IMG/VR virus record: IMGVR_UViG_3300020360_000085
Span: 160,001-224,000 of that record
Direction: 5' to 3' (one strand)
Length of the DNA stretch: 64,000 nt
From: a virus
Taxonomy: Duplodnaviria; Caudoviricetes
In this document: positions 31,698 through 59,400 of the stretch, one piece after another
How the letters are laid out: the number at the start of each line of letters is the position of its first letter
Position numbering within the stretch: position 1 is the stretch's first letter
The notes under the pieces: model-generated
Told to the model about the DNA's origin: nothing
The model's input: only the letters and a program-made list of their open reading frames with translations
The model's database searches: none
Position numbers and translations under genes: made by a program

Positions 31698-31955
31698 TTA
31701 TAATTCCTTCGTATTAATGCCCAAGTCTTCATTTATTATAGCATCAAAAGGAGATTCTTTCAAGTTTTTTTCACGTTTTTCTTCAAAGTTTCTTTTTAAA
31801 TCGTATGTTAAATACTTTGAATAGTTTTCTAATACATATCCAATCTCTTGTGAACTCATATCTTCTATAACTTCTTTTATAACAAAGTCTAACTTTGCAG
31901 ATAATTCTGCAAGTTTAATCTTCGCTGTTGTTTCCAGATTGTTTGATGACGACAT
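31698..31955 (-). CDS. hypothetical protein
   Basis: Helical ORF filling the gap before rnh. Confidence 0.5.
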   Translation of the reverse strand: MSSSNNLETTAKIKLAELSAKLDFVIKEVIEDMSSQEIGYVLENYSKYLTYDLKRNFEEKREKNLKESPFDAIINEDLGINTKEL

Positions 31956-32433
31956 CTTGTCCTTCCATTTGCATATCTTCTTGTAGACCGTAATCTTGGT
32001 CCGCCATTTCTTGTACTAAAACAGTTCTGCAAACATCATTAAACCATTTGTTTACTACTGCTTCATCACTTTCACCTGTATAGCCATTACTATGTAAAAA
32101 CTTAACAAAGTGATCGTTCCAATCAAGTTCCATATATCCTGCTTTTGCATTTTCAGGATTTACATCTAATTTAAGAACATTAACATAAGGTTGTTCCTTT
32201 AATTCAGCAACTTTTTTGTCGAACTCATATTGTCCAATTTTTCCATTTTTAAGTTGAACTTCTAATTTTGCAAGTTCTTTATCGCTATCAGAGTCAGCAT
32301 TTATTTCTGCTAACATTTCCTCAAGTTCATCTCCTTCATAATAATATTCTGCTTCTGCTATTGCACGAGTCTTACCACTAAGACCCCAACTGGCAGGCAT
32401 CATACTAAATGGAAGTTTAGTTTTCTTTGCCAT
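31915..32433 (-). CDS. hypothetical protein
   Basis: Acidic ORF with ELDWND.FV..L...GY.G; no function recognised. Confidence 0.65.
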   Translation of the reverse strand: MAKKTKLPFSMMPASWGLSGKTRAIAEAEYYYEGDELEEMLAEINADSDSDKELAKLEVQLKNGKIGQYEFDKKVAELKEQPYVNVLKLDVNPENAKAGYMELDWNDHFVKFLHSNGYTGESDEAVVNKWFNDVCRTVLVQEMADQDYGLQEDMQMEGQDVVIKQSGNNSED

Positions 32434-33052: not shown

Positions 33053-33940
33053 TTATTTTCCGATTGCATTACCGTATATGTGTACATGTACTCTACTTGT
33101 ATAGTAGTAACCACGTTTAATGGCTTCATCGGCAATAGTGGCCTCAGTTTGTATGAGACCTTCAAATGTTCCACCTACTCCCATAATCCATACAGGAAAG
33201 TTGCAACCGGCGTCACGGAACATTCTAGTGTTTTCTTCCACTTCCCTCCAACTTTCATCTGTGCCATTAACAACAAACTTTAGTTGACCGTGTGGACTAA
33301 TTTCTGCGTATCTCCCTATAACATCAGGCTTTATTGCTTTTTTAGATTGCTCTCCAGCAGTTGCCCATAGTTTAGGGGATAAACTCCAATACCATTCCCT
33401 AGTACCATCATATGTAAACCATGCAATATAATCTTCTAGTTCTTGTGTAATAGGTCTAGTACCATTAGTTTCTATAGTCACATAGTTAGGCATATTTTCT
33501 CTTCTTTGGAACTCTTCTAATACTCCAATCATTGCTGGTTGTGTATTTTTAAGCATAGGCTCTCCGCCTGTAAATACCATGTGAGTTTCTTGTCCTGTAT
33601 CTGGATGTATAAATTTACCTTTAGGTAAATGAGCAGTAAGTTCATCACATGCTTCTTCTACAGTTTTATCTGTTATTAAATGGCTATATTTTTTTGCCCA
33701 TGTATATGAACTATCACAGCCTTTATCAAAAACAGGTAAATCAAATACATTTGTAATATCTGTAATGTCTAGTTTTTCATAAGGTAATTCATATGTACTA
33801 GGATCTGTAGGATCTTTTTGTCCAAAACCATTACATTGTAAATTACATAGAAAAAATCTCATCCAAAGACTAGGAATACCGACATATTTGCCTTCTCCTT
33901 GTGCTGAATAAAATGTTTCGCTATATTTTACTGTTGTCAT
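33053..33940 (-). CDS. queE: 7-carboxy-7-deazaguanine synthase QueE (non-canonical Cys spacing)
   Basis: YSETFYSAQGEG..VGIPSLWMRF, CNLQC...GCDS, VFTGGEP, IETNGT, LSPK, RVHVHI. Confidence 0.85.
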   Translation of the reverse strand: MTTVKYSETFYSAQGEGKYVGIPSLWMRFFLCNLQCNGFGQKDPTDPSTYELPYEKLDITDITNVFDLPVFDKGCDSSYTWAKKYSHLITDKTVEEACDELTAHLPKGKFIHPDTGQETHMVFTGGEPMLKNTQPAMIGVLEEFQRRENMPNYVTIETNGTRPITQELEDYIAWFTYDGTREWYWSLSPKLWATAGEQSKKAIKPDVIGRYAEISPHGQLKFVVNGTDESWREVEENTRMFRDAGCNFPVWIMGVGGTFEGLIQTEATIADEAIKRGYYYTSRVHVHIYGNAIGK

Positions 33941-34436
33941 CTTCTTTTAAAAATTTTAAAATAGTACCTGGTTCTATATCAGGAACCGCATTACTAATAG
34001 CACTATTTACAATACTATGTATATCACTTACTTCCTCTAAAAGGTTATCCCCATTTACTTTGTCTTCATAAGATTCAATAGCAAGTGTTCTAAAACCTAT
34101 TTCATATAAATCACTTATGTCTGTAATATTTATGTTCGTATTTCTTCCCATTTGCAACACTTTTAAAAAAATTGTATCTGCAATACTAGTGGTTGCTAAA
34201 GTAATTTCTTGATTATCAACAGACTGATTTACAACAACCAATCTATCATGTACGCCTATTGTATCATGATCTGCAACTGCATCTAAACACTCAAAAATTT
34301 CTTCAACAGAGACAGGAAACCTTTTTTGTATTACATCTACTGGATTTCTGTCTAAAATAGAATCAGTAATATTTCTTACAGGAACCTTTAATGCTCCTAT
34401 AACAAGTGTGCCATTTAGATTACTAATATTACTCAT
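33921..34436 (-). CDS. hypothetical protein with DUF433-like N-terminus
   Basis: VIGALKVPVRNITDSI...KRFPVSVEEIFECL resembles the DUF433 HTH pattern. Confidence 0.4.
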   Translation of the reverse strand: MSNISNLNGTLVIGALKVPVRNITDSILDRNPVDVIQKRFPVSVEEIFECLDAVADHDTIGVHDRLVVVNQSVDNQEITLATTSIADTIFLKVLQMGRNTNINITDISDLYEIGFRTLAIESYEDKVNGDNLLEEVSDIHSIVNSAISNAVPDIEPGTILKFLKEDDNSKI

Positions 34437-35126
34437 TTATTTTCCACATGAGAATTCTTGTTGTAGTTTAATATTATCAAAAAATTCTTTCTTAGTTGAG
34501 GCGTCGTCCATAAATCTGCCTTCTAATACTGTAGTTTGTGTTAAACTGCTATGTGCCATAACACCTCTGTTCTCTACGCAACCATGTGTTGCTTGTACAT
34601 AAACACCTACATCATTACTGCCTGTTGCTTTCATAATCTCTCTAGCAATATCAGTAGCAAGTTCTTCTTGTAAAGTACCTCTACTAGCACACCATTGTGC
34701 TATTCTAGTATATTTAGACAAACCAATAAGTTTTGCCCCTGCAATGATGCCAATATACGCCGTTCCTTTAACTGTTTGATGATGATGCGAACACATACTA
34801 GTAAGTTCACTTCTTACTACAAGCATACCTTTATATGCTTCTTCTGTATCATTAGGAAATGCAGTAGCCTTAGGCATTGGCTCATATCTACCAGACATAA
34901 GTTCATTGATGTACATTTTTGCAAGACGCCTTCCTGTGTCCATACTGTTAGGATCATTTTCAGTATCTATAACTAAGCCTTTAAGAACATCTTCAAATTT
35001 TACTGATAGTTCTTCAATTAGTGCTTCTTTGTCTCCAGGTTCAATAAATTCACTAATATTATCTCCTGCCCAAAACTTTGCACCTGCTTCTTGTAGTCTT
35101 GCTCTTATTTCATCACTTTTGGCCAT
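34437..35126 (-). CDS. folE: GTP cyclohydrolase I
   Basis: SMCSHH, IGLSKYTRI, LQE, HGCVENRGV, TTVLEGRF. Confidence 0.95.
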   Translation of the reverse strand: MAKSDEIRARLQEAGAKFWAGDNISEFIEPGDKEALIEELSVKFEDVLKGLVIDTENDPNSMDTGRRLAKMYINELMSGRYEPMPKATAFPNDTEEAYKGMLVVRSELTSMCSHHHQTVKGTAYIGIIAGAKLIGLSKYTRIAQWCASRGTLQEELATDIAREIMKATGSNDVGVYVQATHGCVENRGVMAHSSLTQTTVLEGRFMDDASTKKEFFDNIKLQQEFSCGK

Positions 35127-35138
35127 TAAAAAGGTCTC

Positions 35139-35627
35139 CTATTTCCACCATTCTTCATATGGAAAGACTATCCATCTTTCCTGATCTGGCAAAACAACGT
35201 TTGCCGTAAATTCTACTTCATTAAACTCACTGCTTTCTTTATCAAACAAAGTTGCAAATTTAATACCCTCATGTAAAGTAAACATATTGTTATTTTGTTT
35301 ACTATCAAAATCTTTAATTACAGACAATATACCATGTAATGTCTTACCAGAATCATTAATATCATCTACAACTAAAATGTTTTTACTAATGTATTTAGAC
35401 AAAATGTGTTTAAGAGTCTCAGAATCTTCGATTTTTCCGTCTCTTGTTTGCCATCTAAATGCTTCAAAAGGCACCTCAAAGTAGTGGCTTAACATAACAC
35501 CAAAAGGATATGCTCCTCTACCAGGGCCTATAATTACATCAGGTTTATAACTTTCATGTGCCATTTCTCTAGCAATGATTCTGCAGTCAGAAACCAAGTC
35601 GTTGTATGAGTAATATAATTTATTCAT
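35139..35627 (-). CDS. type I purine phosphoribosyltransferase (Gpt-like)
   Basis: PRPP loop ILVVDDINDSGKT, IIGPGRGA, C-terminal WIVFPYE. Confidence 0.85.
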   Translation of the reverse strand: MNKLYYSYNDLVSDCRIIAREMAHESYKPDVIIGPGRGAYPFGVMLSHYFEVPFEAFRWQTRDGKIEDSETLKHILSKYISKNILVVDDINDSGKTLHGILSVIKDFDSKQNNNMFTLHEGIKFATLFDKESSEFNEVEFTANVVLPDQERWIVFPYEEWWK

Positions 35628-35633
35628 AATTAC

Positions 35634-35661
35634 AGTATAACATCATTTTACTTGATGTCAA
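35634..35661 (-). promoter_or_regulatory. sigma70-like promoter TTGACA-N16-TATACT
   Basis: -35 at 35656-35661, -10 at 35634-35639, TGT extension. Confidence 0.7.
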
Positions 35662-35662
35662 T

Positions 35663-36619
35663 TTATTTCTTAGACTGATATGCAATTTCATCAGCAACAA
35701 TTTCTTCTAATGTATTTTGTGGTTCCCAACCTAACATCTCAAATGCTTTTACTATATTTGCATCTGTTCTTTCAGCATCGCCATCTCTTTTAGGGCCAAC
35801 TTCTACATTAATTTCTTTTTCTAATTGTTTTTCTACTTCTGCAATAACTTGCTTTATACTTGTTCCAGATCCGCCACCAATATTAAATATATTACTATTG
35901 CCACCATCCATTAAATAGTTTAAAGCAGATACATGAGCAGATGCTACATCAAAAACATGAGTGTAATCTCTAATACATGTACCATCAGGTGTTTCGTAAT
36001 CGTCTCCATTTACTGTAAAAACTTCGTCATTTAAACCAGCATTTACTAGTATAGGTACTAAATGTTGTTTTGGATTAAGTGTATATCCTAATCCTTGATA
36101 ACTACCTGCGGCATTAAAATATCTTAAACTTGCAAAATTAAATTCATAAGCATCTGCATAGTCTTTTAAAACATTTTCTATAATTAACTTACTTCTACCA
36201 TATGGTGTTTTAGGATTAGGAATGTCGCTTTCTGCATTTAGAATAGTTTCTGAGTCTCCGTAAACAGAACTTGAACTACTAAAAATAAAATGCTTAACTC
36301 CTGCATTTATAGAATGATTTAAAAGAGATATTGAGTTTGCCACATTATTAGCATAAGTAGAGGCAGGATCTTGTATGCTTAAAGGCACACTATGATCAGC
36401 CGCTAGATGAATAACTGCATCTGGTTTTGTTAATTCTATTACGCCTTTTAATTGATGATTATCAATATCAAAAGGATATTGTGTGACACCTTCTTGCTGT
36501 CTTTTTACCCTGTCAATATTAATAACATTATAGCCTGAATCAACAAGTAATTTACAGGTTACACTACCTATAAATCCACTACCACCAGTAACTAAAATAG
36601 TTTTTTCTTCATTATCCAT
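35663..36619 (-). CDS. galE: UDP-glucose 4-epimerase
   Basis: LVTGGSGFIGS, FSSSSSVYG, YGRSK, LRYFNAAG, DGTCIRDYTHV. Confidence 0.9.
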   Translation of the reverse strand: MDNEEKTILVTGGSGFIGSVTCKLLVDSGYNVINIDRVKRQQEGVTQYPFDIDNHQLKGVIELTKPDAVIHLAADHSVPLSIQDPASTYANNVANSISLLNHSINAGVKHFIFSSSSSVYGDSETILNAESDIPNPKTPYGRSKLIIENVLKDYADAYEFNFASLRYFNAAGSYQGLGYTLNPKQHLVPILVNAGLNDEVFTVNGDDYETPDGTCIRDYTHVFDVASAHVSALNYLMDGGNSNIFNIGGGSGTSIKQVIAEVEKQLEKEINVEVGPKRDGDAERTDANIVKAFEMLGWEPQNTLEEIVADEIAYQSKK

Positions 36620-37599
36620 TATTTCTCACTAAACCAGGAATCAAATACTTGTTCACTATCACAAACATTGATTCCGTTAAAATTAAAGTTAGTAATTGCA
36701 TCTACAGTCATATCCACACTTTCTTCAAATCTGTCAAACAGTTTTAAGTTTGGATACAACTCTGGATACACTAACCTATTAGGAAGTACAGGCGTACAAC
36801 CTAAATACACGGCTTCAGCAACACCAAAGCCAAAGTTTTCTTGTAAAGCATAACTTACGATTGCTTTACTTTTGCCAAGTAAAGAATAGTATTCTTCCTT
36901 GGAAAGATTTTGTTCCTGTGTTTTTACAAACTGTACCGGAACATTTACCTTTTCAGATACTTGTTTTTCTAATTCATCAAACAACCAAGGTTGTTTTTCA
37001 TCACAAAGTCTTCCATTAAAGATAACAATATTTTCTTTTTGTTGCCCTTTGTGTGAATCGAGCCCTGTGTAGTCTACAGGCAAACCTGTAACAACTAACT
37101 TGTCAGGGCTCACGATACGTTTTTTAATTATATCTTGTTTAATAAATTCACTTGCACAAAAAATTGTATCGCTTATATCAAATATAATATCCTCAAAATT
37201 CTTTGCCCAACGTTCCATATCGCGAACAAAATCTGTATCTGTAAAACTTCCTGCATGAATTATACCTGTAATCTTTACATCAACTTTGTTAAAGTATTTC
37301 ATATAGGCAATGTTTTCAATACCAGGAAACCAAATGTCACTAAAGAAGAATCTGTCGCCATCTGCAATTTCTCCTCTTTCAAACATAGCAGATATTTCTG
37401 CCATTTGTAAAGATTTAAATTTACTTGTAAAGGCGGCATTTAAAAATTGACCTTCAGGCAAAGGAGGTGTTTCATAAGTAGGCATAATTTTAACATACTC
37501 TAAATTTTTATCCTGTAGATATTTTTCAATATCTCTGTCCATATGAACAGTATATCTACCATCAATATGTTCTAAAGGTATGTAAATTATTTTACTCAT
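36619..37599 (-). CDS. GT-B (GT4-like) glycosyltransferase
   Basis: FNGRLCDEKQ and the EX7E motif ENFGFGVAE. Confidence 0.8.
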   Translation of the reverse strand: MSKIIYIPLEHIDGRYTVHMDRDIEKYLQDKNLEYVKIMPTYETPPLPEGQFLNAAFTSKFKSLQMAEISAMFERGEIADGDRFFFSDIWFPGIENIAYMKYFNKVDVKITGIIHAGSFTDTDFVRDMERWAKNFEDIIFDISDTIFCASEFIKQDIIKKRIVSPDKLVVTGLPVDYTGLDSHKGQQKENIVIFNGRLCDEKQPWLFDELEKQVSEKVNVPVQFVKTQEQNLSKEEYYSLLGKSKAIVSYALQENFGFGVAEAVYLGCTPVLPNRLVYPELYPNLKLFDRFEESVDMTVDAITNFNFNGINVCDSEQVFDSWFSEK

Positions 37600-37738
37600 T
37601 TTCGTTTTCGTCTCCTAAACCTTCTCCATAATCTACAACGTGAGTTATTTCATCGTCAAGACTTTGAGCATAATCATTATTTTTATCTGCCTCTGCTTTA
37701 CTAATTTTTTTAGGCTTTTTCTTCTCTTCTTCAGTCAT
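37592..37738 (-). CDS. small acidic hypothetical protein (48 aa, absent from the ORF track)
   Basis: MTEEEKKKPKK...GLGDENENE; TAATG overlap upstream and overlap with the GT start. Confidence 0.5.
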   Translation of the reverse strand: MTEEEKKKPKKISKAEADKNNDYAQSLDDEITHVVDYGEGLGDENENE

Positions 37739-37914
37739 TACATTGAGTTCTTTTTATCTTGGATTTCAGAACGTCTAACTTTTGTTAATTTGCTGATTTC
37801 CATTAATGCCTTTCTTGCTCTTGTGGCACTTGCTTTTACACCATTATTTTCGAACTTGTCTTGTTCCATAATGTATTCTTCCATCAGTGCTTTAAGTTTT
37901 AAATGTGTTTCCAT
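37738..37914 (-). CDS. Hc1/histone H1-like basic protein (58 aa, absent from the ORF track)
   Basis: METHLKLKALMEEY...NGVKASATRARKALMEISKLTKVRRSEIQ; RBS AAGGAG; G-x-KAxxTRARKA pattern. Confidence 0.7.
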   Translation of the reverse strand: METHLKLKALMEEYIMEQDKFENNGVKASATRARKALMEISKLTKVRRSEIQDKKNSM

Positions 37915-37925
37915 ATCTTTCTCCT

Positions 37926-38300
37926 TTATGGTACTTTTATGTATTCCATTTCACAGCCATTTTCATTATCCTCGGCTACTGAAATCTTTACCCAACGACC
38001 AGGATACCTATCTTGTATCTGTGTCGCTAAATCATCTGCGATCATTTCGCATGACTTGTTATTAAGTTGTATAACATCTTCATTATACAAACTTTCAAGC
38101 CATCTTTTAAATTGTATAAACTCGATATCTCTGTCATCATGAAACACTTCTATCCACACTTTAAAGTGAAATATGTGTCTGTGTTTATACCCCAAAAAAC
38201 TTACGTCATACTCGTCTCCTGTAGCAGTAGCAGGATTTGTATCTGCTCCAGGATAAAAGTGTATTCCCTCTTTACTGAATGTTACCCAAATACTTCTCAC
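37926..38300 (-). CDS. dpdL: QueD-paralogue T-fold protein with LxxxHRHxF motif (DpdL-like)
   Basis: FLGYKHRHIFHF, RDIEFIQFK, KSCEMIA, AEDNENG; probable GTG start at 38300 behind GGAGG; lacks the CxxxHGH of canonical QueD. Confidence 0.65.
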   Translation of the reverse strand: MRSIWVTFSKEGIHFYPGADTNPATATGDEYDVSFLGYKHRHIFHFKVWIEVFHDDRDIEFIQFKRWLESLYNEDVIQLNNKSCEMIADDLATQIQDRYPGRWVKISVAEDNENGCEMEYIKVP

Positions 38301-38328
38301 GACCAACCTCCATCAATTGTTTCCATTA

Positions 38329-38445
38329 CTATAACTCCTTATTCTCTTGTTTGTCATTATTATAACCGCCAACTAAAAATATTGTTGCAAAGGCAACACT
38401 GAAGCACACTAAACTAACAAAAAATACTAATTGTGTTAATTCCAT
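38329..38445 (-). CDS. small single-TM membrane peptide (38 aa, absent from the track)
   Basis: MELTQLVFFVSLVCFSVAFATIFLVGGYNNDKQENKEL; TAATG overlap. Confidence 0.45.
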   Translation of the reverse strand: MELTQLVFFVSLVCFSVAFATIFLVGGYNNDKQENKEL

Positions 38446-38852
38446 TATGCCTCCTTATTTGGGTTCCAAATAGTTAGATTTTTAGTTTTAAGTCTATTAG
38501 CAACAATTTTGTATCTGGACTGCTCTTCCTTCCATTCCTTTAACCATTTATGGCCATCTCTTTCTGCATCTACAAAAATAGCATTTGTAAAGGCCAAAGG
38601 AATTAAAATTGCACAATGTATTATAATACTTGCTACTGTATTATAACCAAACCATCCGAGATAGTGTGCCGCAATAAATCCAAAAAATACACTCCACATA
38701 ACAAACAGCACTAACATAAAGTATGTTTGTAAACTTGGATCTGGTATATACTTTAATGGATTATATCTAACGTCCATTACTCTTCTCCAGCCATTTACAA
38801 GACCTAATATTGCCCTTCTAAATAGGCTTGGCTTCTTCATTAAAGGTTCCAT
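38445..38852 (-). CDS. membrane protein, hypothetical
   Basis: Two hydrophobic segments; YNPLKYIPDPSLQ; RBS AGGAG. Confidence 0.7.
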   Translation of the reverse strand: MEPLMKKPSLFRRAILGLVNGWRRVMDVRYNPLKYIPDPSLQTYFMLVLFVMWSVFFGFIAAHYLGWFGYNTVASIIIHCAILIPLAFTNAIFVDAERDGHKWLKEWKEEQSRYKIVANRLKTKNLTIWNPNKEA

Positions 38853-38860
38853 ATTTTCTC

Positions 38861-38965
38861 CTATTCAATATGATTTCTTATATATTCTTTTAATACATGC
38901 ATACCATATGATATCCAAGTAATAAAAAAAAGACTCCATAAAACTAATTGAAGAATTTCAATCAT
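38861..38965 (-). CDS. small single-TM membrane peptide (34 aa, absent from the track)
   Basis: MIEILQLVLWSLFFITWISYGMHVLKEYIRNHIE fills the gap exactly. Confidence 0.45.
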   Translation of the reverse strand: MIEILQLVLWSLFFITWISYGMHVLKEYIRNHIE

Positions 38966-39149
38966 TAACTGAATCCGCTTCAGTTAATCTGTCTAACTCC
39001 TCAATATCATGTTCACCAATAATTTCAACATCAAAGTTTCCATCTGGTGTTCTATCAACAGTAAATGACATATCATATCCTTTACTTTCTAAAGTATCTA
39101 CTTTAGCACAAAATTCATTAAATTCGCTAGTGGTTAATGTTGCTTTCAT
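38958..39149 (-). CDS. small hypothetical protein
   Basis: RBS AAGGAG; ATGA overlap. Confidence 0.55.
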   Translation of the reverse strand: MKATLTTSEFNEFCAKVDTLESKGYDMSFTVDRTPDGNFDVEIIGEHDIEELDRLTEADSVND

Positions 39150-39274
39150 TCTGACTCCTTGTCATTATTTTCTGCTTCTTCATTTGCAGTTTCATTATTT
39201 TGCTTCTGCTTTTTTAGTATTTCAGCAATAGCACTTTCGTAACTTAATGGTTGTTCTTTTTTATCTTCTGTCAT
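39146..39274 (-). CDS. small hypothetical protein (42 aa, absent from the track)
   Basis: MTEDKKEQPLSYESAIAEILKKQ...; ATGA overlaps at both ends. Confidence 0.45.
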   Translation of the reverse strand: MTEDKKEQPLSYESAIAEILKKQKQNNETANEEAENNDKESE

Positions 39275-39432
39275 TTTTCTGGGTCTTCTAAAATATCTTG
39301 TTTCTCTTCTATTACCTTTCTCATAACGTCATGCTCTGTAGTATCACACCAATTGCAAGGCTGTCCATATGGTATTTGTGTTTCTCCAACATCTTTACAA
39401 ACATGTGTCCACCATTTACCATTCTGCTTCAT
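39271..39432 (-). CDS. small H/C-motif protein (53 aa, absent from the track)
   Basis: MKQNGKWWTHVCKDVG...PCNWCD; HxC...CxxC possible Zn site. Confidence 0.5.
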   Translation of the reverse strand: MKQNGKWWTHVCKDVGETQIPYGQPCNWCDTTEHDVMRKVIEEKQDILEDPEK

Positions 39433-39604
39433 CTATAAGTTCCTGTATCTCATCAGGTATTTCTACACCTGTTCTTTTAAGAAACACAAATAACTTAACA
39501 AAAAATCCTTCCCAATCTTCTATTTCAGTAAAGTCTCCATCAAACTCAACACTTGATATTATATTATGTTCGTCCGTTCCTGTCAACTTATATTTTACAG
39601 CCAT
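39416..39604 (-). CDS. small acidic hypothetical protein
   Basis: TAATG-coupled ORF. Confidence 0.5.
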   Translation of the reverse strand: MAVKYKLTGTDEHNIISSVEFDGDFTEIEDWEGFFVKLFVFLKRTGVEIPDEIQELIDEAEW

Positions 39605-40080
39605 TATATAATCTCCGCCCTATTAGTATATTTTATATAAGGCTCAAAATAACTTTTTCTAGTCATTTTTTCTATAGACTCTGAAAATATTCCATCATTA
39701 GAATATGTTAAATACTTGTCATTTATTTTATAACAAGTATTTTCGTTGTATTCTGCTAAATCTGGAATAATAAAATTTAAAATTGGAATAAAGTTATTAC
39801 TGTTATTGCATTCCATGTTTATTATATCTGGGCAATAATTAGGAGTAAATTCTAAAGATATATATAAATCTTTTACTGCTAATAACTCTTTTAAAAGGTC
39901 TGCCCATAAATTAAATTGATTTCTGTTACCTGGATTAAAATTAGTAAAATGGATATGATGTACTTTATTGTTTAATGCTCGTGCTAATATTTCTTCTTTA
40001 TGTTGCCAGCCATGTACAAACAAAGTTTCCTCACCTTTCATAATTGTGTTATCAACTTCGCTACCTAAACTATAAATCAT
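39604..40080 (-). CDS. hypothetical protein downstream of dpdA
   Basis: ATGA overlap with the dpdA stop; no motif. Confidence 0.6.
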   Translation of the reverse strand: MIYSLGSEVDNTIMKGEETLFVHGWQHKEEILARALNNKVHHIHFTNFNPGNRNQFNLWADLLKELLAVKDLYISLEFTPNYCPDIINMECNNSNNFIPILNFIIPDLAEYNENTCYKINDKYLTYSNDGIFSESIEKMTRKSYFEPYIKYTNRAEII

Positions 40081-41609
40081 GCCTCAAAATCTCCTGACAT
40101 AATTTCATGTGTCATTGCATTTACATCATCGTCCTGATCAAATTCTTCTTCCTCAAAAAATGCACCAAATCCTGCATTTGTTTTAGCACCAAAACTCATC
40201 TCATCTAGTAATTTAACATTTTCTTCTATTAGTTCATATGGATTAGGACAAGCAGGATCTAATACTTCCTGGCAAAAACTATCAAAGTATAATGCATTTG
40301 CAGGAACATAAGGACTAAATTCGTTACTCTTGCCTGATTTTTTATCATTAATATAATCAGTATAATGTACATTAGTTCTATATTTTTCTACATCAGCAAG
40401 TCTGTTTGCTTCTTGTACCGCAGTAATATGATTGTACACACTATGAGCCATATAATATAGATATGTTTGTGTGTCCCAACTTGTAGATGTTGCACTCTTG
40501 GCCTTTCCGTTTTTATCTAGATCGCCTTCTGACATGGCACATATATCTCCTACAGTAAGTCTTTCCATTATAGGAGAATGTGCAAATGGCATAGGCAACT
40601 TGGAGCCTTTTAATTGTTGATTGTCTATCGCTCTATCCATTAAGTAACTAAACTTTTTAGGATGGAAACTGTTATGTGTATATGTGCTACCATATGCACT
40701 ATTAACAAACGGACTGGCGGCATCCATGCTCAAACATATATCTGGACTGTCATGTTTCCTTAACATTCTTTGTATGCTAGTTAAGTAACAGGCCCAATTA
40801 AGTTTACCTGTACCCAAGAAATGTATCCAGCCTTTGCCTTCCAACAATCCATCTTCCCTGAGTTTAAGTATCCTTCTTAGGGCCATTCTCATATTACGTT
40901 TTTGTAAATCAGCAAATGCGTATCCTTCTAATGCAAGTTCGCTATTGCCATATGCTTCTTTACAAAATTTAGGGTCACTAAAATGTTTAACTTTTTCATA
41001 CCACTCATCACAAGTAGGCTCATCAACTCCACTCATTACATTTAAGAACTTACACTTACCTGGTGTTCTGTTCTTCATATAGTAGTCCAAGTTGTACAAA
41101 CTAATTTGCATAGTTTGTTCAAAAGTTTCTAATCCTGTTTTTTTATTGAAAGGAGGGAAGGCCGCAAAAGGAGGAACATCTAATGTCATTGCCCAATCGC
41201 ATTGTTCCTCTTCCCATTTAAGAATTTTATTTACAAGTTTTTCCCTTTCAGGATCATCTGGATTTATAGCATTTGCCCAATCCATTTTAATAACACCAGT
41301 TGCAATCTGGAAACCGCCTGAGTCTCCAAGTATTAGTGTTTTACTTCTATCTCTATCAGTAATCATAGGCTCGCCATCAAGTTTATCTAAATCTAACTGA
41401 GCATGACCGGCAGAGTATAATCCCCAAGGATAGTAATAGTAAGTGTCTATATCTTTTAGGAAATCCATGCCCTCATGACCTAATTCAAGTCCTTCAGGTA
41501 CTCTAGGTGCTCCTTCTTTTTGTAATTTTTCTAACTGCTTTACATAAAAACTACTAATAGCAGGTAAAAATATTGCATAGTCTCTTTGTGTTTTTCCTAA
41601 ATTTTTCAT
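40077..41609 (-). CDS. dpdA: DpdA-like (TGT-fold) 7-deazaguanine DNA transglycosylase
   Basis: ILGDSGGFQ (TGT catalytic Asp), MTLDVP, IHFLGTG, SMDAASP; no TGT Zn-binding Cys cluster; lies among folE, queE and a queD paralogue. Confidence 0.8.
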   Translation of the reverse strand: MKNLGKTQRDYAIFLPAISSFYVKQLEKLQKEGAPRVPEGLELGHEGMDFLKDIDTYYYYPWGLYSAGHAQLDLDKLDGEPMITDRDRSKTLILGDSGGFQIATGVIKMDWANAINPDDPEREKLVNKILKWEEEQCDWAMTLDVPPFAAFPPFNKKTGLETFEQTMQISLYNLDYYMKNRTPGKCKFLNVMSGVDEPTCDEWYEKVKHFSDPKFCKEAYGNSELALEGYAFADLQKRNMRMALRRILKLREDGLLEGKGWIHFLGTGKLNWACYLTSIQRMLRKHDSPDICLSMDAASPFVNSAYGSTYTHNSFHPKKFSYLMDRAIDNQQLKGSKLPMPFAHSPIMERLTVGDICAMSEGDLDKNGKAKSATSTSWDTQTYLYYMAHSVYNHITAVQEANRLADVEKYRTNVHYTDYINDKKSGKSNEFSPYVPANALYFDSFCQEVLDPACPNPYELIEENVKLLDEMSFGAKTNAGFGAFFEEEEFDQDDDVNAMTHEIMSGDFEA

Positions 41610-41846: not shown

Positions 41847-42530
41847 TTACCACTTAACTCCAACATTAAAACTAAACACATTAGTATCAATAGGATCTTC
41901 TGTGTAAGTGTTTGCAATACTTAATACTAAGCCACTATCTAAATTATAATTTAAAGCAGTTTCATTTCTTATATAAACATCACTATCACTACCTTCTTCA
42001 TAAAGAAACTTATTTGTAAAAGTAATTTTTTCAGCAACTTTGTAAAAAAACCATAAACTGTTTCTAATAATTGCTTCATTTATAGAGTCTGTTTGTAAAG
42101 TTGCAATAGAAAATTCGTTACTTGCTTTCATTCTGTCTGTTCTTAAAAGTTTGTATCCATATCCAACACCTAGTACTTTCCTATCTCCGTCTGCTCTAAA
42201 TTTATCATTATCATAACCTAGCACACCAAATACATATTGCTTTGGAGAAAATGTATAATTAGTTTTTGTATTAAACACAAACTCATTTAAAATTTCTTCG
42301 CTATCCTCTTTTTTGTAAACATAGTCTGTTTCCAATGTTTGTTGCCACTTATTCTGTTCCCACTGATAGTCAAAACTACCATTAACAGTTACAGAATGGC
42401 TATTGATTAAAGTACCACCAAGTTTTGCACTTCCAGATGCATTTAATGGATTAGACAATATCATAAAAAATAAGAATAGCAGACTACATACTGCTATCTT
42501 ATAATATTTTTCTACCTTTTCGTCAGACAT
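41847..42530 (-). CDS. outer-membrane beta-barrel protein (DUF481/YdiY-like)
   Basis: Signal peptide ending LNA; alternating beta-strands; C-terminal FSFNVGVKW. Confidence 0.7.
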   Translation of the reverse strand: MSDEKVEKYYKIAVCSLLFLFFMILSNPLNASGSAKLGGTLINSHSVTVNGSFDYQWEQNKWQQTLETDYVYKKEDSEEILNEFVFNTKTNYTFSPKQYVFGVLGYDNDKFRADGDRKVLGVGYGYKLLRTDRMKASNEFSIATLQTDSINEAIIRNSLWFFYKVAEKITFTNKFLYEEGSDSDVYIRNETALNYNLDSGLVLSIANTYTEDPIDTNVFSFNVGVKW

Positions 42531-43354: not shown

Positions 43355-46036
43355 TCATAATTCGAAAAATTTTTGTAATGTTTCACTCTCCGTTGTTTTA
43401 CTTAATTCAAATCCTAAAGGACCTAAAACGTTTTCTACTTTTTTGTCCACAACACTTTCTTCCATTGCTTCTTCATCAAAGGGCAACTCCTTAAACCATT
43501 GTGGCAAATTTAATTCATCTGTAGGGTATGCAACACTAGTATAACCCATAGGATTATTTTTAAGTTTACAAACAACTACCTTCATACCATCAGTTATAGG
43601 CAGACTGTAGTTATCACTGTTTGCTTGTCTTAAATTATTCCAATTTATACTTGCCCTGACATGCCCAGGAATCATGTTACTTTGTCCTTCATTTTTTACA
43701 GCATCTAACTTATGCAATCTGTAATTTTCAGGCACTTTAGCCTTAGCCATTAGTTTTGCGGTGTACATTGTAACATTATTAGCACGTTTAGGCATACCTT
43801 TTTTCCAAGGATCTAAACTTTTAAAGTAATCTTTAAAGTCTCTAATTTTTTGTATTGCATGTTCTTCTCCCATACCTTTTAAGGAGTCAATTAATACTTC
43901 CTCTAAAAAGTCTTGAATAAATTCAGGAGTATCAGAACGTTTTATTTCTAATCCCATTGCCTTAAGTTTGCCACCCTCAGGCTGATATCCTTCTATATCT
44001 AAACACAGTATTGCGTACCTTTTCTTTGTTAAAAATAGTCCTGATCTGCCTACTACTTCTCTTCCTGCTTTCATTACTTGTCCAGTGTCTAAAGGAACAT
44101 TAAAAGTATCTTTTAGATATTGCGGAAAAGTTTCACTTACATTTTCAGATATATGATCATACAATTTTATTGCACTATCCATTTCCAGTTTTTCACCTTC
44201 AGGTAAGGCCGGAGTAGCAGTAAAGTAAACAGAATCTGTGTCTCCATATATAATACAATCTCCTTCATGATCATATTCTCCAGTCAACATAAGATTAGTT
44301 TGAGCCCCCATATGCCTAGTAATGCTCCTGCCAGTTAGTGTAGTACTTTGTCCTATACGTTTGTCATAAAATCTACAACCAGGATTTAGTATTGCACCAT
44401 ATAAACTATTAAGTTGAATCTTTTTAACTAACTGCCTTTTATCCCAAAAAGCAATCTCTTCAGACGTTGTTGCTTCTTTTTTCTTCTTTTGCATTTGTTG
44501 TCTTTCTGCATACCAACGTTCTAATAAGCCAGGCACAATGCCTTGGAAGTCTGTTTTAAATATTGTGCCATTTGCACTTATATTCCAAGGTTGCCCACTA
44601 TTAAAAACTAAATTGTAAACATCAGCACCTGTAACTTTATGTGTAGATCCATCTTCCATATCCAAATCCATCATATGATCTACATCTTTATTTTTAACAA
44701 ACTCATATTCATCTGTTCCAAACTTGCCATGCCAAGCATCACTAAATGTTTTTTTCTCTAACTTCATTGCATTAGTAATTGTTTCTTCTGTATAATCCAA
44801 ACGTAACTGCCCAACAATAGTTTCAGGCGCCATATTTAAGGCCCTAAATACACTAGGATACAGACTGTTTAAGTCCATACTGCCTACCCATTCATGAAAA
44901 CCTTTTTTAGGAGTTGCCACAAAGGCACCAGCCGCCTGATCTCTTTCTGATGCTTTAGGTCTGTCAGGAACTACAAACTCCCTCCTGTGTGCTTCATTAA
45001 TAATTGCTTGTTCTGTTGTTGCTACCGCCCCCATTGTTGCCGGCAATAGTATTGTATTTTCATGTGCAATAATATTTGCAAGATCGATAAACATTAATTT
45101 TTTATCCATTTTTGCAAGTAGCATAACGTCTTGTATGTTGTATTCTAAAAATTTTACAAAGTCATAATTGTAAAGTCTATCTAGACTACCTTCATAAGGG
45201 ACTTTTTTCTCCCCTATTTCCATTTCCCCTATATAGTCTAGCCTATAACTATGTCGTTCCTCATAATTGTATTTCCTATATAAGTTCAGGTAGTCTAGAT
45301 GAACTCGACCTACTAGGTCATAACTGACAACTTCTTTGCCATATTGCTCAAACTTCCTTTCTTTAGGAAGTTTTTTCATAAGGCACAGTCGCCTAGTTTC
45401 TGCTTTACCCATTACTCTGGTAATTCTGTTTACTATGTAAGGTATATCATAACCTTCACTGTTCCAACCACTTATAATATCTGCGTCATCTATAAGTGTA
45501 AGAAAAGCATCTAGCATTTCTTTTTCTGTTTTATATAAAATAACTTCAGGCATATCCTTTGTCATTTCATTTGCTTGTTCAAAAGATATCCTTTTAGGAG
45601 GAACAGCAAGACATATCATTGTCTCCATCCAATCTAAATATATTCCTATTGCAGTAATAATAGAATAGGGATCTTGAGGACTACTATATCCTCTGCTAGG
45701 ATCAAAGTCTGATTCTATATCTATAAATGCTGTTTGTAATTTAGGAGCAGGAGAATTAGTATAATTATCTGCAAGTGTTTTGTTAAGAGGCCTTATATCA
45801 CTTTCATAAAGACCGTTGTGTTTGTTTATGCCTACATTCTTTTTAAAATCTTTTATGTTTGTGCAACGAACTTCTGTTACAGGATCACCATATATACTTT
45901 TAGTTTTGCCATTAGGATCTTTATAATAAAAATTGTGTACAGGTTTAAGTTCTTTTACAACTCTTTCTCCATCCACACGTTCTACGACTGTTACAACGTC
46001 TTTCGATTGTTCGTAAAATGCGTCTACATAACTCAT
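43355..46036 (-). CDS. family B DNA polymerase (gp43-like)
   Basis: Exonuclease motifs FIDIE, GWNSEGYD, YNIQD; polymerase motifs DLNSLYPS, KIQLNSLYG, YGDTDS, KKRYA. Confidence 0.97.
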   Translation of the reverse strand: MSYVDAFYEQSKDVVTVVERVDGERVVKELKPVHNFYYKDPNGKTKSIYGDPVTEVRCTNIKDFKKNVGINKHNGLYESDIRPLNKTLADNYTNSPAPKLQTAFIDIESDFDPSRGYSSPQDPYSIITAIGIYLDWMETMICLAVPPKRISFEQANEMTKDMPEVILYKTEKEMLDAFLTLIDDADIISGWNSEGYDIPYIVNRITRVMGKAETRRLCLMKKLPKERKFEQYGKEVVSYDLVGRVHLDYLNLYRKYNYEERHSYRLDYIGEMEIGEKKVPYEGSLDRLYNYDFVKFLEYNIQDVMLLAKMDKKLMFIDLANIIAHENTILLPATMGAVATTEQAIINEAHRREFVVPDRPKASERDQAAGAFVATPKKGFHEWVGSMDLNSLYPSVFRALNMAPETIVGQLRLDYTEETITNAMKLEKKTFSDAWHGKFGTDEYEFVKNKDVDHMMDLDMEDGSTHKVTGADVYNLVFNSGQPWNISANGTIFKTDFQGIVPGLLERWYAERQQMQKKKKEATTSEEIAFWDKRQLVKKIQLNSLYGAILNPGCRFYDKRIGQSTTLTGRSITRHMGAQTNLMLTGEYDHEGDCIIYGDTDSVYFTATPALPEGEKLEMDSAIKLYDHISENVSETFPQYLKDTFNVPLDTGQVMKAGREVVGRSGLFLTKKRYAILCLDIEGYQPEGGKLKAMGLEIKRSDTPEFIQDFLEEVLIDSLKGMGEEHAIQKIRDFKDYFKSLDPWKKGMPKRANNVTMYTAKLMAKAKVPENYRLHKLDAVKNEGQSNMIPGHVRASINWNNLRQANSDNYSLPITDGMKVVVCKLKNNPMGYTSVAYPTDELNLPQWFKELPFDEEAMEESVVDKKVENVLGPLGFELSKTTESETLQKFFEL

Positions 46037-46059: not shown

Positions 46060-46087
46060 ATTATATAACTTATTTGGAAATTGTCAA
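46060..46087 (-). promoter_or_regulatory. sigma70-like promoter TTGACA-N16-TATAAT
   Basis: -35 at 46082-46087, -10 at 46060-46065, upstream of PolB. Confidence 0.7.
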
Positions 46088-56427: not shown

Positions 56428-59400
56428 TTACACATAGTTGTAATGAACTGTTGCCACCATGGCACCTGCAGTGGTTGTTGCCGCTGAGGATCCATTAGAT
56501 TGCATAAACTGTACTTGAACAGTTGCATTTTTTGTAAGTGTATCATCACCATCTAATTCAATGATGTAAGATCCGGCCGTTGCCGCATCGGCATCTGAAG
56601 AAGCAACTAATGTGTCTCCTGATCCACCATTTTCTTTAATTAGTATGTGGTTAAATGATCCACCACTAAATGCTGTACTTACTTTTAATACAATTTTATC
56701 TGCGTAATAAGTTCTACCTGAAACATTTGGTACTGTACCAATGTTAAAAGTTGTATCTGAACTGTTTGCAGTAAATGTACTTCTAAGTATAAGTCCATCA
56801 CCACCGTTATTGTCAACATAGTCTTTAACAGCCGCTGAAGTTGGTATTGTAGTATCATTATCATTGTTACTAATACCATCTGATTCATCAACAAACTTAG
56901 TAATTGATATACTCTCACCTGAGTCTGTTAATGTTCCAAAACTTACAGCACCACTGATTGTAGCACTTGTACCTATAAATCCAGCCGCTTCAAAATTTGT
57001 TGCCGCTAATGTTAGGTCGCCACTGCCACTACCGTCTGCAGTAGTTGTTGCCGCCACAAACCTATCAACACTTTGGTCCCATCCTAAGAATCCGTTGTTA
57101 CCATCTGATCCTCTTTCGTAAATGTGACCTATGTCATTAGGGTTAGCACCTGATAATCCAGACTGTAGAACAACTAATGTATCTGCAATAGTTGTGTTAG
57201 TCGAATTTACACTTGTTGTTGTACCACTAACTGTTAAGTTACCACCAACTGTAACATCACTTGAGAAAGCACCAGTTGTTGCTCCACTAAGAGCACCACC
57301 TGTTAAAGTTGCTGTTCCGTCTGTTAATGTTGTTGATGTAACACTTGTTAAACCTGTCAAAGTTGCATCTAGGTTTACAGTTAATGTATTACCACTTCCT
57401 ACTGTAGTGATATTAGTACCACCAGCAATATCAAGTGTTTCTGAGTCTAGATCAATTGCTAAAGCACCACCACTATCGCCTTGGAAGTCCAAGTCTTGTG
57501 CAGTAAGTTGAGTATCAACGTATGCTTTAACTGATTGCTGTGTAGGAACAAGTGAAGCACTATCACTAGCCATGTTGTCTTCGTCAACAAATGCTGTAAT
57601 TGTGATTGAACCGTCACTTAATGATCCGTATTGTACAGTACCACTTGCTGTGATGTTTGTTGCACCTGTAATAGCACCACTAGAAGCACTTAACGTACCA
57701 TCTGTTAGTGTACCACCTTGTACTGAGCCACTGAATGTAGCCGCAACACCACCAGTTAGTGTACCGTCGGATAAAGTTGCCGCACCGTCAGTAATAGCAC
57801 CAGCAGTAACTAGGTTACCTGCTGTTATGTTGCCACTTACTGTTGGAGCATTAACAAGTCCTACTGTAATTGTGTTGTTAGTAACTGCTGTTTCGATCTC
57901 ATTACTTGTACCTGAAATAGTTAGTTTTTCACCACCATTTACAGTATCCTCAGTACCACTATCAGCATCAATATTGAAACTTGTTGTTATTGAGGTATTA
58001 GAGGCCGCTGTTATACGTCCTTGAGCGTCAACAGTAATTACTGGAACTGCTGTTGCGCCACCATATGAGCCAGCACTTACGGCTGTATTATCTAGATTTA
58101 ATGTTACTGTTTGGCTACCTGCCGCGGATGTAAGACCTGTACCACCTGCAATAGTTAGTGACTGTGAGTCTAAGTCGACAGCACCTGTTCCACTATCACC
58201 TGCAAGGTCTAAGTCTTGTGCAGTAATATTTGTATCTACATAATTTTTAACTGCCGCTGATGTAGGTATAGATGTGTCATTGTCATTACTTCCAATGCCA
58301 TCACTTTCATCAACGAATTTTGTGACTGCAATTGACTCACCTGAGTCTGTTAGAGTTCCAAAACTTATAACACCTGAAGCAGTTAAGTTTACAGCACCTG
58401 TCATAGATCCTGAAGCAATTTCCATTGTTCCATCTTTAAATCTACCTGCTGTTACATTACCACTTGCTGTAACTGTTGTTGCACCACTTAAAGCACCACT
58501 TGTTAGTGTTGCTGTTCCGTCTGTAAGTGAACCACCTGTTACTGCACCTGTTGTTGTATATGCACCTGCTTTAACTGTTTCTGAACCGAAGTCCCATTGA
58601 GTTGTAGCCGCTTTATAAAGTATCTGTTTGATACTTCCGTTTGCATTTGCTTCGAAACCAGCATCGGTATTTGCACCGCCACTGTTTACTCTAAATATTG
58701 CGTCTGCTGTTTCAACTGTTGTTGAATTTACTGTTGTCTGTGTACCTTGTACCGTTAGGTTACCTGTAATAATCGCATCACCTGTAAGACTAACTGTTGT
58801 TGCTGTAATGTCATCTGAAAGGAAACTACCTGTTACGGTTAAGTTATTCCCTACTGTGACATTATTTGGTAATCCAATTTGGATTTGGTTATCTGAAACT
58901 GTTGTTTCGATTTCGTTACTTGTACCCACAAAGTTTAGGGTGTCTGTACCAACTGTAACAGTATCATCTGAACCGGAATCTGCTCCGATTGTCAATGTGC
59001 TAGATGTAGAAGCAGTACTTACTGCTGTAATTCTACCTTTAGCATCTACTGTTATAACTGGAATAGCACTACTGCCACCATAACTACCAGCACTAACACC
59101 TGAGGCCGCCAACGTTGTTGTCAACGTTATGTTTTGACTACCGTCAAAAGTTGTAGCACCTGCAGTTGTATCACCTGCTATTGTTATCGTTCTACCTGTT
59201 TCAAGTACGGTTGCATTTGCGGCCGTACCTGTTAAGTCACCAGTAATTGCACCAGAGGCGTTGACAGTTGTAAAACTACCTGCCGCCGCAGAAGCGCCGC
59301 CAATGACTGTGCCATCGATTGCACCGCCATCAATATTGACGTTATTACTGGCCTGTGTAGCAATATTGCCTAAGCCTAAATTTGTTCTGGCGTCTCCGGC

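Follow-up and report, generated by a model that had tools for sequence, protein, structure and literature searches.

The stretch of viral DNA analysed here, referred to as the window, comprises 64,000 nucleotides (positions 160001-224000 of the linear, 250,519-bp IMG/VR virus record IMGVR_UViG_3300020360_000085, with a CheckV completeness of 66% and a GC content of ~32%) and derives from a T4-like marine jumbo phage that is uncultured and related to Pseudomonas phage PA5oct. Close to its family B DNA polymerase gene lies a set of genes that we read as a DpdL-type 7-deazaguanine DNA-modification module: a DpdA-like protein with the fold and catalytic aspartates of guanine transglycosylases, a QueD paralogue of the DpdL type, FolE and a QueE-like radical-SAM enzyme, accompanied by a 6-oxopurine-type phosphoribosyltransferase (PRTase), a GT4-type glycosyltransferase (GT) and a UDP-glucose 4-epimerase (GalE). 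That the core of this set modifies the phage DNA as an anti-restriction measure is highly probable. We give a probability of roughly 70% to the whole seven-step explanation, in which the PRTase and the GT4/GalE pair are also parts of one replication-linked module. That GT4 and GalE leave a hexose on the deazaguanine, on the free base or in DNA, is a serious but tentative proposal. A first-pass annotation of this DNA had named the dpdA-like gene, folE, queE and a QueD paralogue with the motif LGYKHRHIF, and all four are present on the minus strand (Table 1). The sequence shows what the genes are, how their products fold, which catalytic residues these retain and how constantly the genes occur together; from this we infer the chemical steps, the DNA substrate, the role of the PRTase and, with the greatest caution, the sugar step.

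The 510-aa DpdA-like protein was modelled with AlphaFold2 from 53 diverse homologues (pLDDT 90.9, pTM 0.90). When the model was compared with the PDB by Foldseek, the best 50 matches were all tRNA-guanine transglycosylases (TGTs; E ~4e-6, probability 1.0), and a VIA comparison with the T. maritima TGT 2ash gave Z 18.5 and an rmsd of 4.3 over 302 residues (Z range 17.4-18.5 over ~300 residues). In the alignment of the 53 homologues, none departs from D96 (within DSGGFQ) or D296, and at least 90% keep D144; D96 and D144 align with D102 and D156 of the Z. mobilis TGT, and D296 with the SYD motif of the DpdA of Acidovorax phage ACP17. Both TGT and DpdA keep these three aspartates (general acid/base, base recognition and nucleophile) without variation, and Salmonella DpdA requires them (PMC10164549). 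By hhalign the family matches ACP17 DpdA at 96% (E 3e-9) and phiST DpdA3 (CGPG_00065 / gp042) at a probability of 72.5% (E 3e-5, over 83 columns only). Judged from the model and these profiles, its kinship to TGT is visible by fold and profile only: the family profile reached the TGTs of the PDB at E 0.55, and single-sequence PDB searches with the DpdA-like and DpdL proteins returned nothing useful. Its setting in a block of replication genes and the guanine modification of PA5oct DNA, described below, are context that fits DNA as the putative substrate.

The gene that follows encodes a 158-aa protein and appears, from the overlap of its start with the DpdA-like stop, to be translationally coupled to the DpdA-like gene. 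It keeps this position in nearly all related loci (29-94% identity) and aligns over its full length with ACP17 ASD50402 (132 aa), which lies just upstream of the ACP17 DpdA. Searches of Pfam, the PDB and the Atlas with the 158-aa protein gave zero matches, and a predicted complex with the DpdA-like protein scored 0.00, which is evidence neither way.

The DpdL-type protein carries LGYKHRHIF, which fits the pattern LxxxHRHxF with Leu in place of the catalytic Cys of QueD; L38, H42, H44 and F46 are invariant in nine aligned DpdLs. Its true start is likely the GTG at 38300 behind a GGAGG, since the resulting 124 aa matches the length of its homologues. By tblastn it is 49% identical to the ACP17 protein (E 5e-39), 33% to that of phiST (E 1e-11) and 69% to that of Phosso. 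The Pfam PTPS family (PF01242) gave no match, and our other signals for this kinship were weak (hhalign against QueD alignments, 19.6%; the PTPS-like 2dj6 at E 0.26 in the PDB profile search; PF01242 in 10% of the members of the Atlas neighbour cluster). The alignment of DpdL with QueD has His, SCE and E-x-x-N columns in common, and for the T-fold/PTPS assignment we rely on the HHpred value of 99.89% published for phiST DpdL (Cui et al. 2023, PMC10516641). The same study defined DpdL by LxxxHRHxF replacing the CxxxHGH of QueD and proposed that it decarboxylates 7-carboxy-7-deazaguanine (CDG) to give 7-deazaguanine; the first-pass annotation had named this link, in agreement with what is a proposal there (PMC10516641). 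Two variants of the gene were seen among relatives. PA5oct DpdL (EST35_0318, L001:11769-12146) reads LGYPHFHYF, with Phe for the Arg of HRH, and the other aligned DpdLs all have HRH. On a 293-kb JGI contig (L012), positions 15610-15971 match DpdL in two reading frames (two high-scoring segments) and were called as two short genes, by assembly frameshift or because the copy is broken; DpdL is intact in the relatives L013 and L014.

FolE is 64% identical to the FolE of Phosso. The QueE-like protein begins with FYSAQGEG...CNLQC, including the QGEG motif, and matches Fer4_12 just at the cut-off. Its first 80 residues contain only three Cys, spaced C32-x3-C36-x38-C75, which amounts to a 38-residue insert relative to the usual CX3CX2C. 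Between the two genes lies an open reading frame (ORF) for a 171-aa acidic protein, which evolves fast (23-95% identity in relatives) and is absent from L012-L014. It was considered as a hidden QueD and rejected: it has no family and no T-fold His motif, is poorly conserved and is missing from some relatives.

A search for near-identical DNA to this region in 50,697 phage records gave zero matches. The order of the module is maintained in 31 related metagenomic and IMG/VR loci, whose DpdA-like proteins are 60-99% identical to the one here and which hold the DpdA-like gene, the 158-aa gene, DpdL, GT, epimerase, PRTase, FolE and QueE. Because it is retained in so many loci, the arrangement is not due to chance.

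The genes beyond the core are GT4, GalE, the purine PRTase, the 158-aa and 171-aa proteins of no known family and a small membrane protein. For the GT, a model with pLDDT 80.5 found BshA 6d9t (E 3e-9, TM 0.66), MshA and GlgM as its best PDB matches, with tetrahydrobiopterin glucosyltransferase 5ze7 at rank 10, and BshA and MshA among Swiss-Prot models. The EX7E glutamates (E254, E262) and the diphosphate-binding residues R197 and K202 are invariant in 16 GT homologues; Pfam GT4/GT1 matches stayed below threshold. We also considered a queuosine glycosyltransferase (QTMAN/GTDC1): no match to the Pfam QTMAN N-terminal family was obtained at E <=5, and none of the best 30 Swiss-Prot models belonged to it, which does not exclude that family. 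The start of galE overlaps the GT4 stop by 1 nt, its translation has GxxGxxG and YxxxK motifs, and a GalE-type epimerase is found in every related locus that reaches its position (43-97% identity).

GT homologues adjoin DpdL or lie within 4 kb of it in seven cultured lineages: the PA5oct group, Phosso (469 kb), ACP17, Xanthomonas phages BUDD and X1, Burkholderia phage BCSR5 and the T4-like cyanophage BUCT-ZZ01. Co-occurrence was also counted in 80 IMG/VR viral loci chosen by QueD similarity alone and inspected over +/- 8 kb. DpdL was present in 25 of the 80, and these 25 included 17 with the GT, 16 with an epimerase-like short-chain dehydrogenase/reductase (SDR), 13 with the DpdA-like gene and eight with the PRTase; the counts are lower bounds because many of the 80 loci are incomplete. 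The epimerase-like SDR (25-39% identical) occurred in 36 of all 80. An earlier suggestion that the extra genes further decorate the base gains support from this company of GT4 and epimerase with DpdL in many lineages. Two further genes touch on the subject. L012:11713-12351, and likewise L013 and L014, encodes a 212-aa protein resembling 2-oxoglutarate (2OG)-Fe(II) oxygenases (PF13640, E 1e-4) as the second gene past the DpdA-like one, with a 64-aa ORF in between, in the relatives that show ~60% identity in their DpdA-like protein; the window has no counterpart. In the phages L012-L014 this protein could create a hydroxyl acceptor for the GT. BUCT-ZZ01 (L015:5373-6716) has a second glycosyltransferase of 447 aa (Glyco_trans_1_4, E 3e-5) between FolE and DpdA.

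The PRTase has as its best solved relatives the P. horikoshii purine PRTase 1vdm (E 3e-9), hypoxanthine-guanine phosphoribosyltransferases (HGPRTs) and Sulfolobus GpT-2. In its phosphoribosyl pyrophosphate (PRPP) loop, VDDINDSGKT, residues D88, D89, D92 and T96 are invariant, and we take D92 to occupy the position that in HGPRT contacts purine N7, an atom that deazaguanine lacks. Phage homologues in the collection were confined to the phiST group, Campylobacter Firehammervirus, BUCT-ZZ01, one uncultured faecal phage record and, weakly, PA5oct. The gene adjoins QueE in BUCT-ZZ01 (QueE-PRT-x-QueD-FolE) and is one gene away from it in CP21 and PA5oct (two genes before QueE in Firehammervirus). 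Full replacement of G has been measured in both the phiST group, with 100% 2'-deoxy-7-deazaguanosine (dDG), and Firehammervirus, with 100% of the 7-amido derivative (dADG) (PMC10516641). A WQTRDG motif is common to the PRTases of this clade, BUCT-ZZ01 and phiST; the copies of CP21 and PA5oct lack it, nor does it appear in the printed alignment to 1vdm. The motif could mark a loop that sets base specificity.

Taken together, the genes suggest the following pathway. FolE would open GTP, and a QueD activity outside the available 250 kb, encoded by the missing third of the genome or by the host, would give 6-carboxytetrahydropterin (CPH4), from which the QueE-like enzyme would make CDG. The DpdL-type protein would convert this base to the form that is inserted, by decarboxylation to 7-deazaguanine according to the published proposal, and the TGT-fold DpdA-like enzyme would exchange guanine in the phage DNA for it after replication, protecting the DNA from restriction enzymes that read G. 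The PRTase would most likely serve salvage, turning guanine excised from DNA into GMP and so on to GTP, which FolE could use anew. GT4 and the coupled GalE would work in the same pathway, probably attaching a hexose (from UDP-galactose or UDP-glucose) to the deazaguanine or a precursor. Precedents for the core exist: phiST reaches its complete replacement with FolE, QueD, QueE, DpdL and DpdA3 and no QueC (PMC10516641), and Vibrio phage VP1 was reported to be fully 7-deazaguanine-substituted. As the DpdL link named in the first-pass annotation holds, the core is very probably a new member of the phiST-type "DpdL, no QueC" dDG system.

Several findings weigh against this pathway, in its core as well as in its sugar step. 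The DpdA-like protein has no Pfam match, not even to TGT (PF01702), which only two of the 53 family members reach (E 0.0045), and the conserved Cys cluster of the TGT zinc site was not seen in the 53-homologue alignment. Five NCBIfam QueE models match the QueE-like protein at only 19.5-38 bits against cut-offs of 200-300. The decarboxylase activity of DpdL has never been demonstrated, and dpdL plus dpdA from phiST or ACP17 gave no dDG in E. coli (PMC10516641).

The missing QueD belongs on the same side. The search for queC, queD and queF was extended from the window to the whole 250,519-bp record, where profiles for QueD (PF01242), QueC (PF06508), QueF (PF14489) and TGT (PF01702) gave no match, and neither tblastn with five phage QueDs nor a custom QueD hidden Markov model (--max, no filters) found a QueD. 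Since the record is linear and 66% complete, absence from the phage itself is not proven. The description of the module as lacking a canonical QueD therefore holds for the 250-kb record and is less secure for the genome, the more so as all five DpdL phages searched carry the gene (PA5oct ~55 kb from its cluster, phiST, ACP17, BUCT-ZZ01 and RHph_I1_18). QueD was not found in the cluster of the 31 related loci, nor in five larger IMG/VR fragments of the clade. A QueD-seeded scan yielded mostly ACP17-like phages and in addition one relative (L098; 55-72% protein identity), whose canonical QueD (L098:5041-5514) lies between homologues of the ORFs at 57181-58287 and 56955-57212 of the present record. 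These two flanking genes are adjacent here, so QueD is missing at the syntenic site, outside the window. The L098 fragment lacks DpdL, so that L098 may or may not belong to the same system. Its ribonucleotide reductase (RNR) alpha and beta genes adjoin the genes that flank QueD; here the RNR genes are at 10.7-14.1 kb, and by gene order the nucleotide-metabolism block appears rearranged relative to L098. With no QueD in 250 kb, the pathway is either host-dependent or the record is incomplete, and we give roughly even odds to a QueD elsewhere in the genome and to CPH4 supplied by the host.

As for the sugar, dDG offers no obvious acceptor hydroxyl for glycosylation, phiST makes dDG without this GT, and GalE and the GT could act on glycans rather than in this pathway. 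The phage may contain plain dDG exactly as phiST does, with GT4 and GalE doing another job (virion or host-surface glycans, protein glycosylation) or helping without leaving a sugar on DNA. This we consider possible but rather unlikely. In structure, GT4 comes closest to generic GT4s that act on small molecules or lipids, and DpdL occurs without the GT in the phiST group, RHph_I1_18 and Ahp1, so the GT is not needed for dDG as such. Yet the GT adjoins DpdL across phages as distant as a T4-like cyanophage, ACP17, the jumbo phage PA5oct, the 469-kb Phosso and Xanthomonas and Burkholderia phages, is found in 17 of the 25 DpdL loci of the QueD-selected sample and has invariant catalytic motifs, and ACP17, whose dpdA and dpdL were insufficient in E. 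coli (PMC10516641), is itself a GT-bearing phage. What speaks for the sugar step is the breadth and strength of this gene association and the failure of dpdA and dpdL alone. If a sugar is attached, DpdL may do something other than, or beyond, decarboxylation, which would explain that failure. Plain dDG and a glycosylated deazaguanine are both compatible with the sequence, from which neither the product (dDG, dCDG or a decorated base) nor the use of DNA as substrate is readable.

Two further explanations change the route or the substrate. In deazapurine antibiotic pathways, enzymes of the ToyH/TubE type couple a deazapurine base to PRPP. The PRTase might likewise join 7-deazaguanine or CDG to PRPP, after which the nucleotide would be reduced, phosphorylated and incorporated by the family B polymerase, the TGT-fold enzyme merely mopping up residual G or acting on another substrate. 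The recurrence of PRTase homologues in the lineages listed above, two of them with full G replacement, their closeness to QueE and the position of the module beside the polymerase gene all fit such a route, as does the detection of the 7-amido-7-deazaguanine (ADG) nucleoside in CP220-infected cells (Cui et al., PMC10516641). We nonetheless think it improbable: the PRTase retains D92, the presumed N7 contact, neither a MazG-type dNTP pyrophosphatase, which would clear dGTP, nor a guanylate kinase was found in the 250 kb, and the transglycosylase keeps all its catalytic Asp throughout the clade. Still less can be said for a module that leaves DNA alone and makes a soluble glycosylated pterin or deazapurine, in the style of cyanobacterial biopterin glucosides, or modifies tRNA, as auxiliary metabolism. 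The ten best structural matches of the GT include a tetrahydrobiopterin alpha-glucosyltransferase, tRNA is the classical substrate of TGT-fold enzymes, and DpdL is a PTPS paralogue (PMC10516641). Pterin glycosides, however, need neither QueE nor a transglycosylase, the module sits within replication genes with early-type candidate promoters, PA5oct DNA is demonstrably G-modified, and every phage 7-deazaguanine pathway studied so far places the base in DNA (Cui et al., PMC10516641). This last explanation is very improbable, and we retain the post-replicative exchange of guanine in DNA as the preferred reading.

All genes from 46036 down to 29965 lie on the minus strand. The order of transcription is polymerase, clamp-like protein, DUF481 protein, DpdA-like protein, 158-aa protein, two small ORFs and a 135-aa membrane protein, DpdL-type protein, GT, GalE, PRTase, FolE, 171-aa protein and QueE-like protein, with an RNase H / 5'-3' exonuclease further on. 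Intergenic sigma70-like candidates with 11-12/12 matches were found at 46087, 43330, 39586 and 35661; the total of promoter-like sites in the region does not exceed the shuffled expectation. Read from these matches, the module is a co-directional, early-type gene array with candidate promoters in its gaps. It had been called an operon; with several sigma70-like promoter candidates in the intergenic gaps, a single operon is not demonstrated. The DUF481 gene, which separates the clamp-like and DpdA-like genes, is present in many relatives at 45-99% identity, L012-L014 included. The 135-aa membrane protein was found in some relatives only (79-99% identity) and is probably an inserted passenger. 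Downstream of QueE, the 172-aa protein is conserved in PA5oct (EST35_0324, 34%), in Phosso (XYS97393, adjoining thymidylate kinase) and in all related loci, and may belong to the block without having been recognised as part of it.

Table 1. Features of the module and its surroundings, with positions in the window
Feature	Position	Strand	Evidence or remark
Family B DNA polymerase	43355..46036	-	PF00136 + PF03104; 47-76% identity (three aligned segments) to the split PA5oct polymerase
Clamp-like protein, 248 aa	between polymerase and DUF481 gene	-	Phosso homologue annotated sliding clamp
DUF481 outer-membrane-type beta-barrel protein	41847-42530	-	PF04338, E 3e-22; N-terminal hydrophobic leader
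DpdA-like guanine transglycosylase (predicted), 510 aa	40077..41609	-	TGT fold and catalytic Asp; directly downstream of the polymerase/clamp-like block
158-aa protein of no known family	39604..40080	-	start overlaps DpdA-like stop by 4 nt
Predicted membrane protein, 135 aa	38445..38852	-	hydrophobic segments in translation; no family match
DpdL-type QueD paralogue, 124 aa	37926..38300 (listed ORF 37926-38306)	-	LGYKHRHIF at residues 38-46
Retaining GT4-type glycosyltransferase, 326 aa	36619..37599	-	GT-B fold, EX7E motif
UDP-glucose 4-epimerase (GalE)	35663..36619	-	TIGR01179 galE, 301.3 bits (cut-off 262.3); PF01370, E 5.5e-52
6-oxopurine-type phosphoribosyltransferase, 162 aa	35139..35627	-	PF00156, 61.9 bits (cut-off 26.3), E 5.7e-17
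GTP cyclohydrolase I (FolE)	34437..35126	-	PF01227, 129.2 bits (cut-off 27), E 1.5e-37; phrog_2197, E 2.8e-43
171-aa acidic protein	33921..34436	-	no family match; occupies the place of QueD in some other phages
QueE-like radical-SAM enzyme (7-carboxy-7-deazaguanine synthase type)	33053..33940	-	phrog_2076, E 7e-51
172-aa protein of no known family	31915-32433	-	downstream of QueE
Candidate sigma70-like promoter	46087-46060	-	perfect consensus match; by the polymerase gene start
Candidate sigma70-like promoter, TTGACA-17-TATAAT	39558..39586	-	12/12, consensus match only; gap after the 158-aa gene
Candidate sigma70-like promoter, TTGACA-16-TATACT + TG extension	35634..35661	-	11/12, consensus match only; 35-nt gap ahead of the PRTase gene

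To our knowledge, all natural sugar-bearing DNA bases are pyrimidines (glucosyl-hydroxymethylcytosine, base J, glycosylated 5-hydroxycytosine and thymidine derivatives). A glycosylated 7-deazaguanine would, if real, be the first sugar-decorated purine in DNA, and it would extend to the phages that have both DpdL and GT4: this abundant marine clade, PA5oct, ACP17, BUCT-ZZ01, Phosso and several Xanthomonas and Burkholderia phages. Our literature searches found no paper on a glycosylated deazaguanine in DNA or on a link between GT and DpdL. As far as they reach, the recurrent addition of GT4, epimerase, PRTase and small protein is undescribed; the DpdL-type 7-deazaguanine core is already a published kind. 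If the DNA holds plain dDG, the module simply adds to the membership of a known system. Ocean metagenomes contain the DpdA-like and DpdL families in great abundance. Among 8,000 candidates scored for each, more than 4,600 DpdA-like proteins (representatives of 90%-identity clusters) passed E 0.001, and all the DpdL candidates matched, so that this family has at least 8,000; at 50% identity the DpdA-like proteins form 784 clusters. Because the two families are so abundant, whatever base is made is common in marine viral DNA, and a common base would have consequences for restriction, for CRISPR targeting and for surveys that rely on sequencing. The module also bears on two problems left open by Cui et al. 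2023, namely the insufficiency of DpdL plus DpdA in E. coli and, through the recurrent PRTase, whether G is replaced after replication or at the nucleotide level. The question can be tested in the cultured phages PA5oct, ACP17, BUCT-ZZ01 and Phosso.

Of the closest known systems, that of phiST has a measured product (PMC10516641). The phage shares FolE, QueE, an LxxxHRHxF DpdL, a distant TGT-fold transglycosylase and the lack of QueC and QueF, and it has a homologous purine PRTase, encoded elsewhere in its genome. Unlike the present module, its cluster includes a canonical QueD and a MazG-like gene and has no GT4, GalE or 158-aa protein; its DpdA3 has 259 aa and can be aligned only partly to the 510-aa family, and its product has been measured whereas ours is known from genes only. 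Campylobacter Firehammervirus (CP220/CP21) likewise has a PRTase homologue near QueE and a G fully replaced by a 7-deazaguanine, but arrives at its 7-amido product through a QueC-like enzyme, and its examined locus has neither DpdL nor GT4. In bacterial Dpd systems (DpdA/DpdB/DpdC) the transglycosylase has the same TGT fold and the same three aspartates, which there serve a double-displacement mechanism (PMC10164549). These systems differ in inserting preQ0 at <1% of G, in being part of a restriction-modification island (PMC10164549) and in needing the ParB-like ATPase DpdB, of which none was noticed in the present cluster, although no search was aimed at it.

The closest cultured relative is PA5oct, a Pseudomonas jumbo phage of the genus Wroclawvirus. 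Its genes EST35_0316-0322 and their neighbours follow the same order, namely polymerase, clamp-like protein, DpdA-like protein (EST35_0316, 47.5% identity), GT4 (EST35_0317, 33%), DpdL (59%), PRT-like protein (25%), QueE (EST35_0322, annotated CDG synthase, 36%) and RNase H. The DNA of PA5oct withstands several restriction enzymes whose sites contain G, and END nucleases, which sense modified G, target it, the base not being named; its deazaguanine system was noted by Iyer et al. 2021. It departs from the present phage in having FolE and two canonical PTPS/QueD genes ~55 kb away, a short Rossmann fragment in the place of GalE and HFH for HRH in DpdL. Two other cultured phages that combine DpdL and GT4 are ACP17 and BUCT-ZZ01. 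The ACP17 cluster has the 132-aa homologue of the 158-aa protein, followed by DpdA, GT4 (ASD50404), DpdL and QueE, and that of BUCT-ZZ01, from Synechococcus, has QueE, PRTase, one further gene, QueD, FolE, the second GT, DpdA, DpdL and GT4. Both differ from the window in having a canonical QueD in the cluster and a DpdA of a different branch (no BLAST match, 96% by hhalign). For the proposed sugar step, the glucosylation of hydroxymethylcytosine in T4 and the pterin glucosyltransferase BGluT offer a comparison of how such enzymes work, and of that only. The T4 enzymes come from other GT families and require a hydroxymethyl acceptor, and BGluT acts on the side-chain hydroxyl of a free pterin; common to all is a GT-B enzyme that uses a UDP-sugar donor to decorate a DNA base (T4) or a 2-amino-4-oxo bicyclic heterocycle (BGluT, itself a GT4), which is the kind of reaction that we tentatively propose here.

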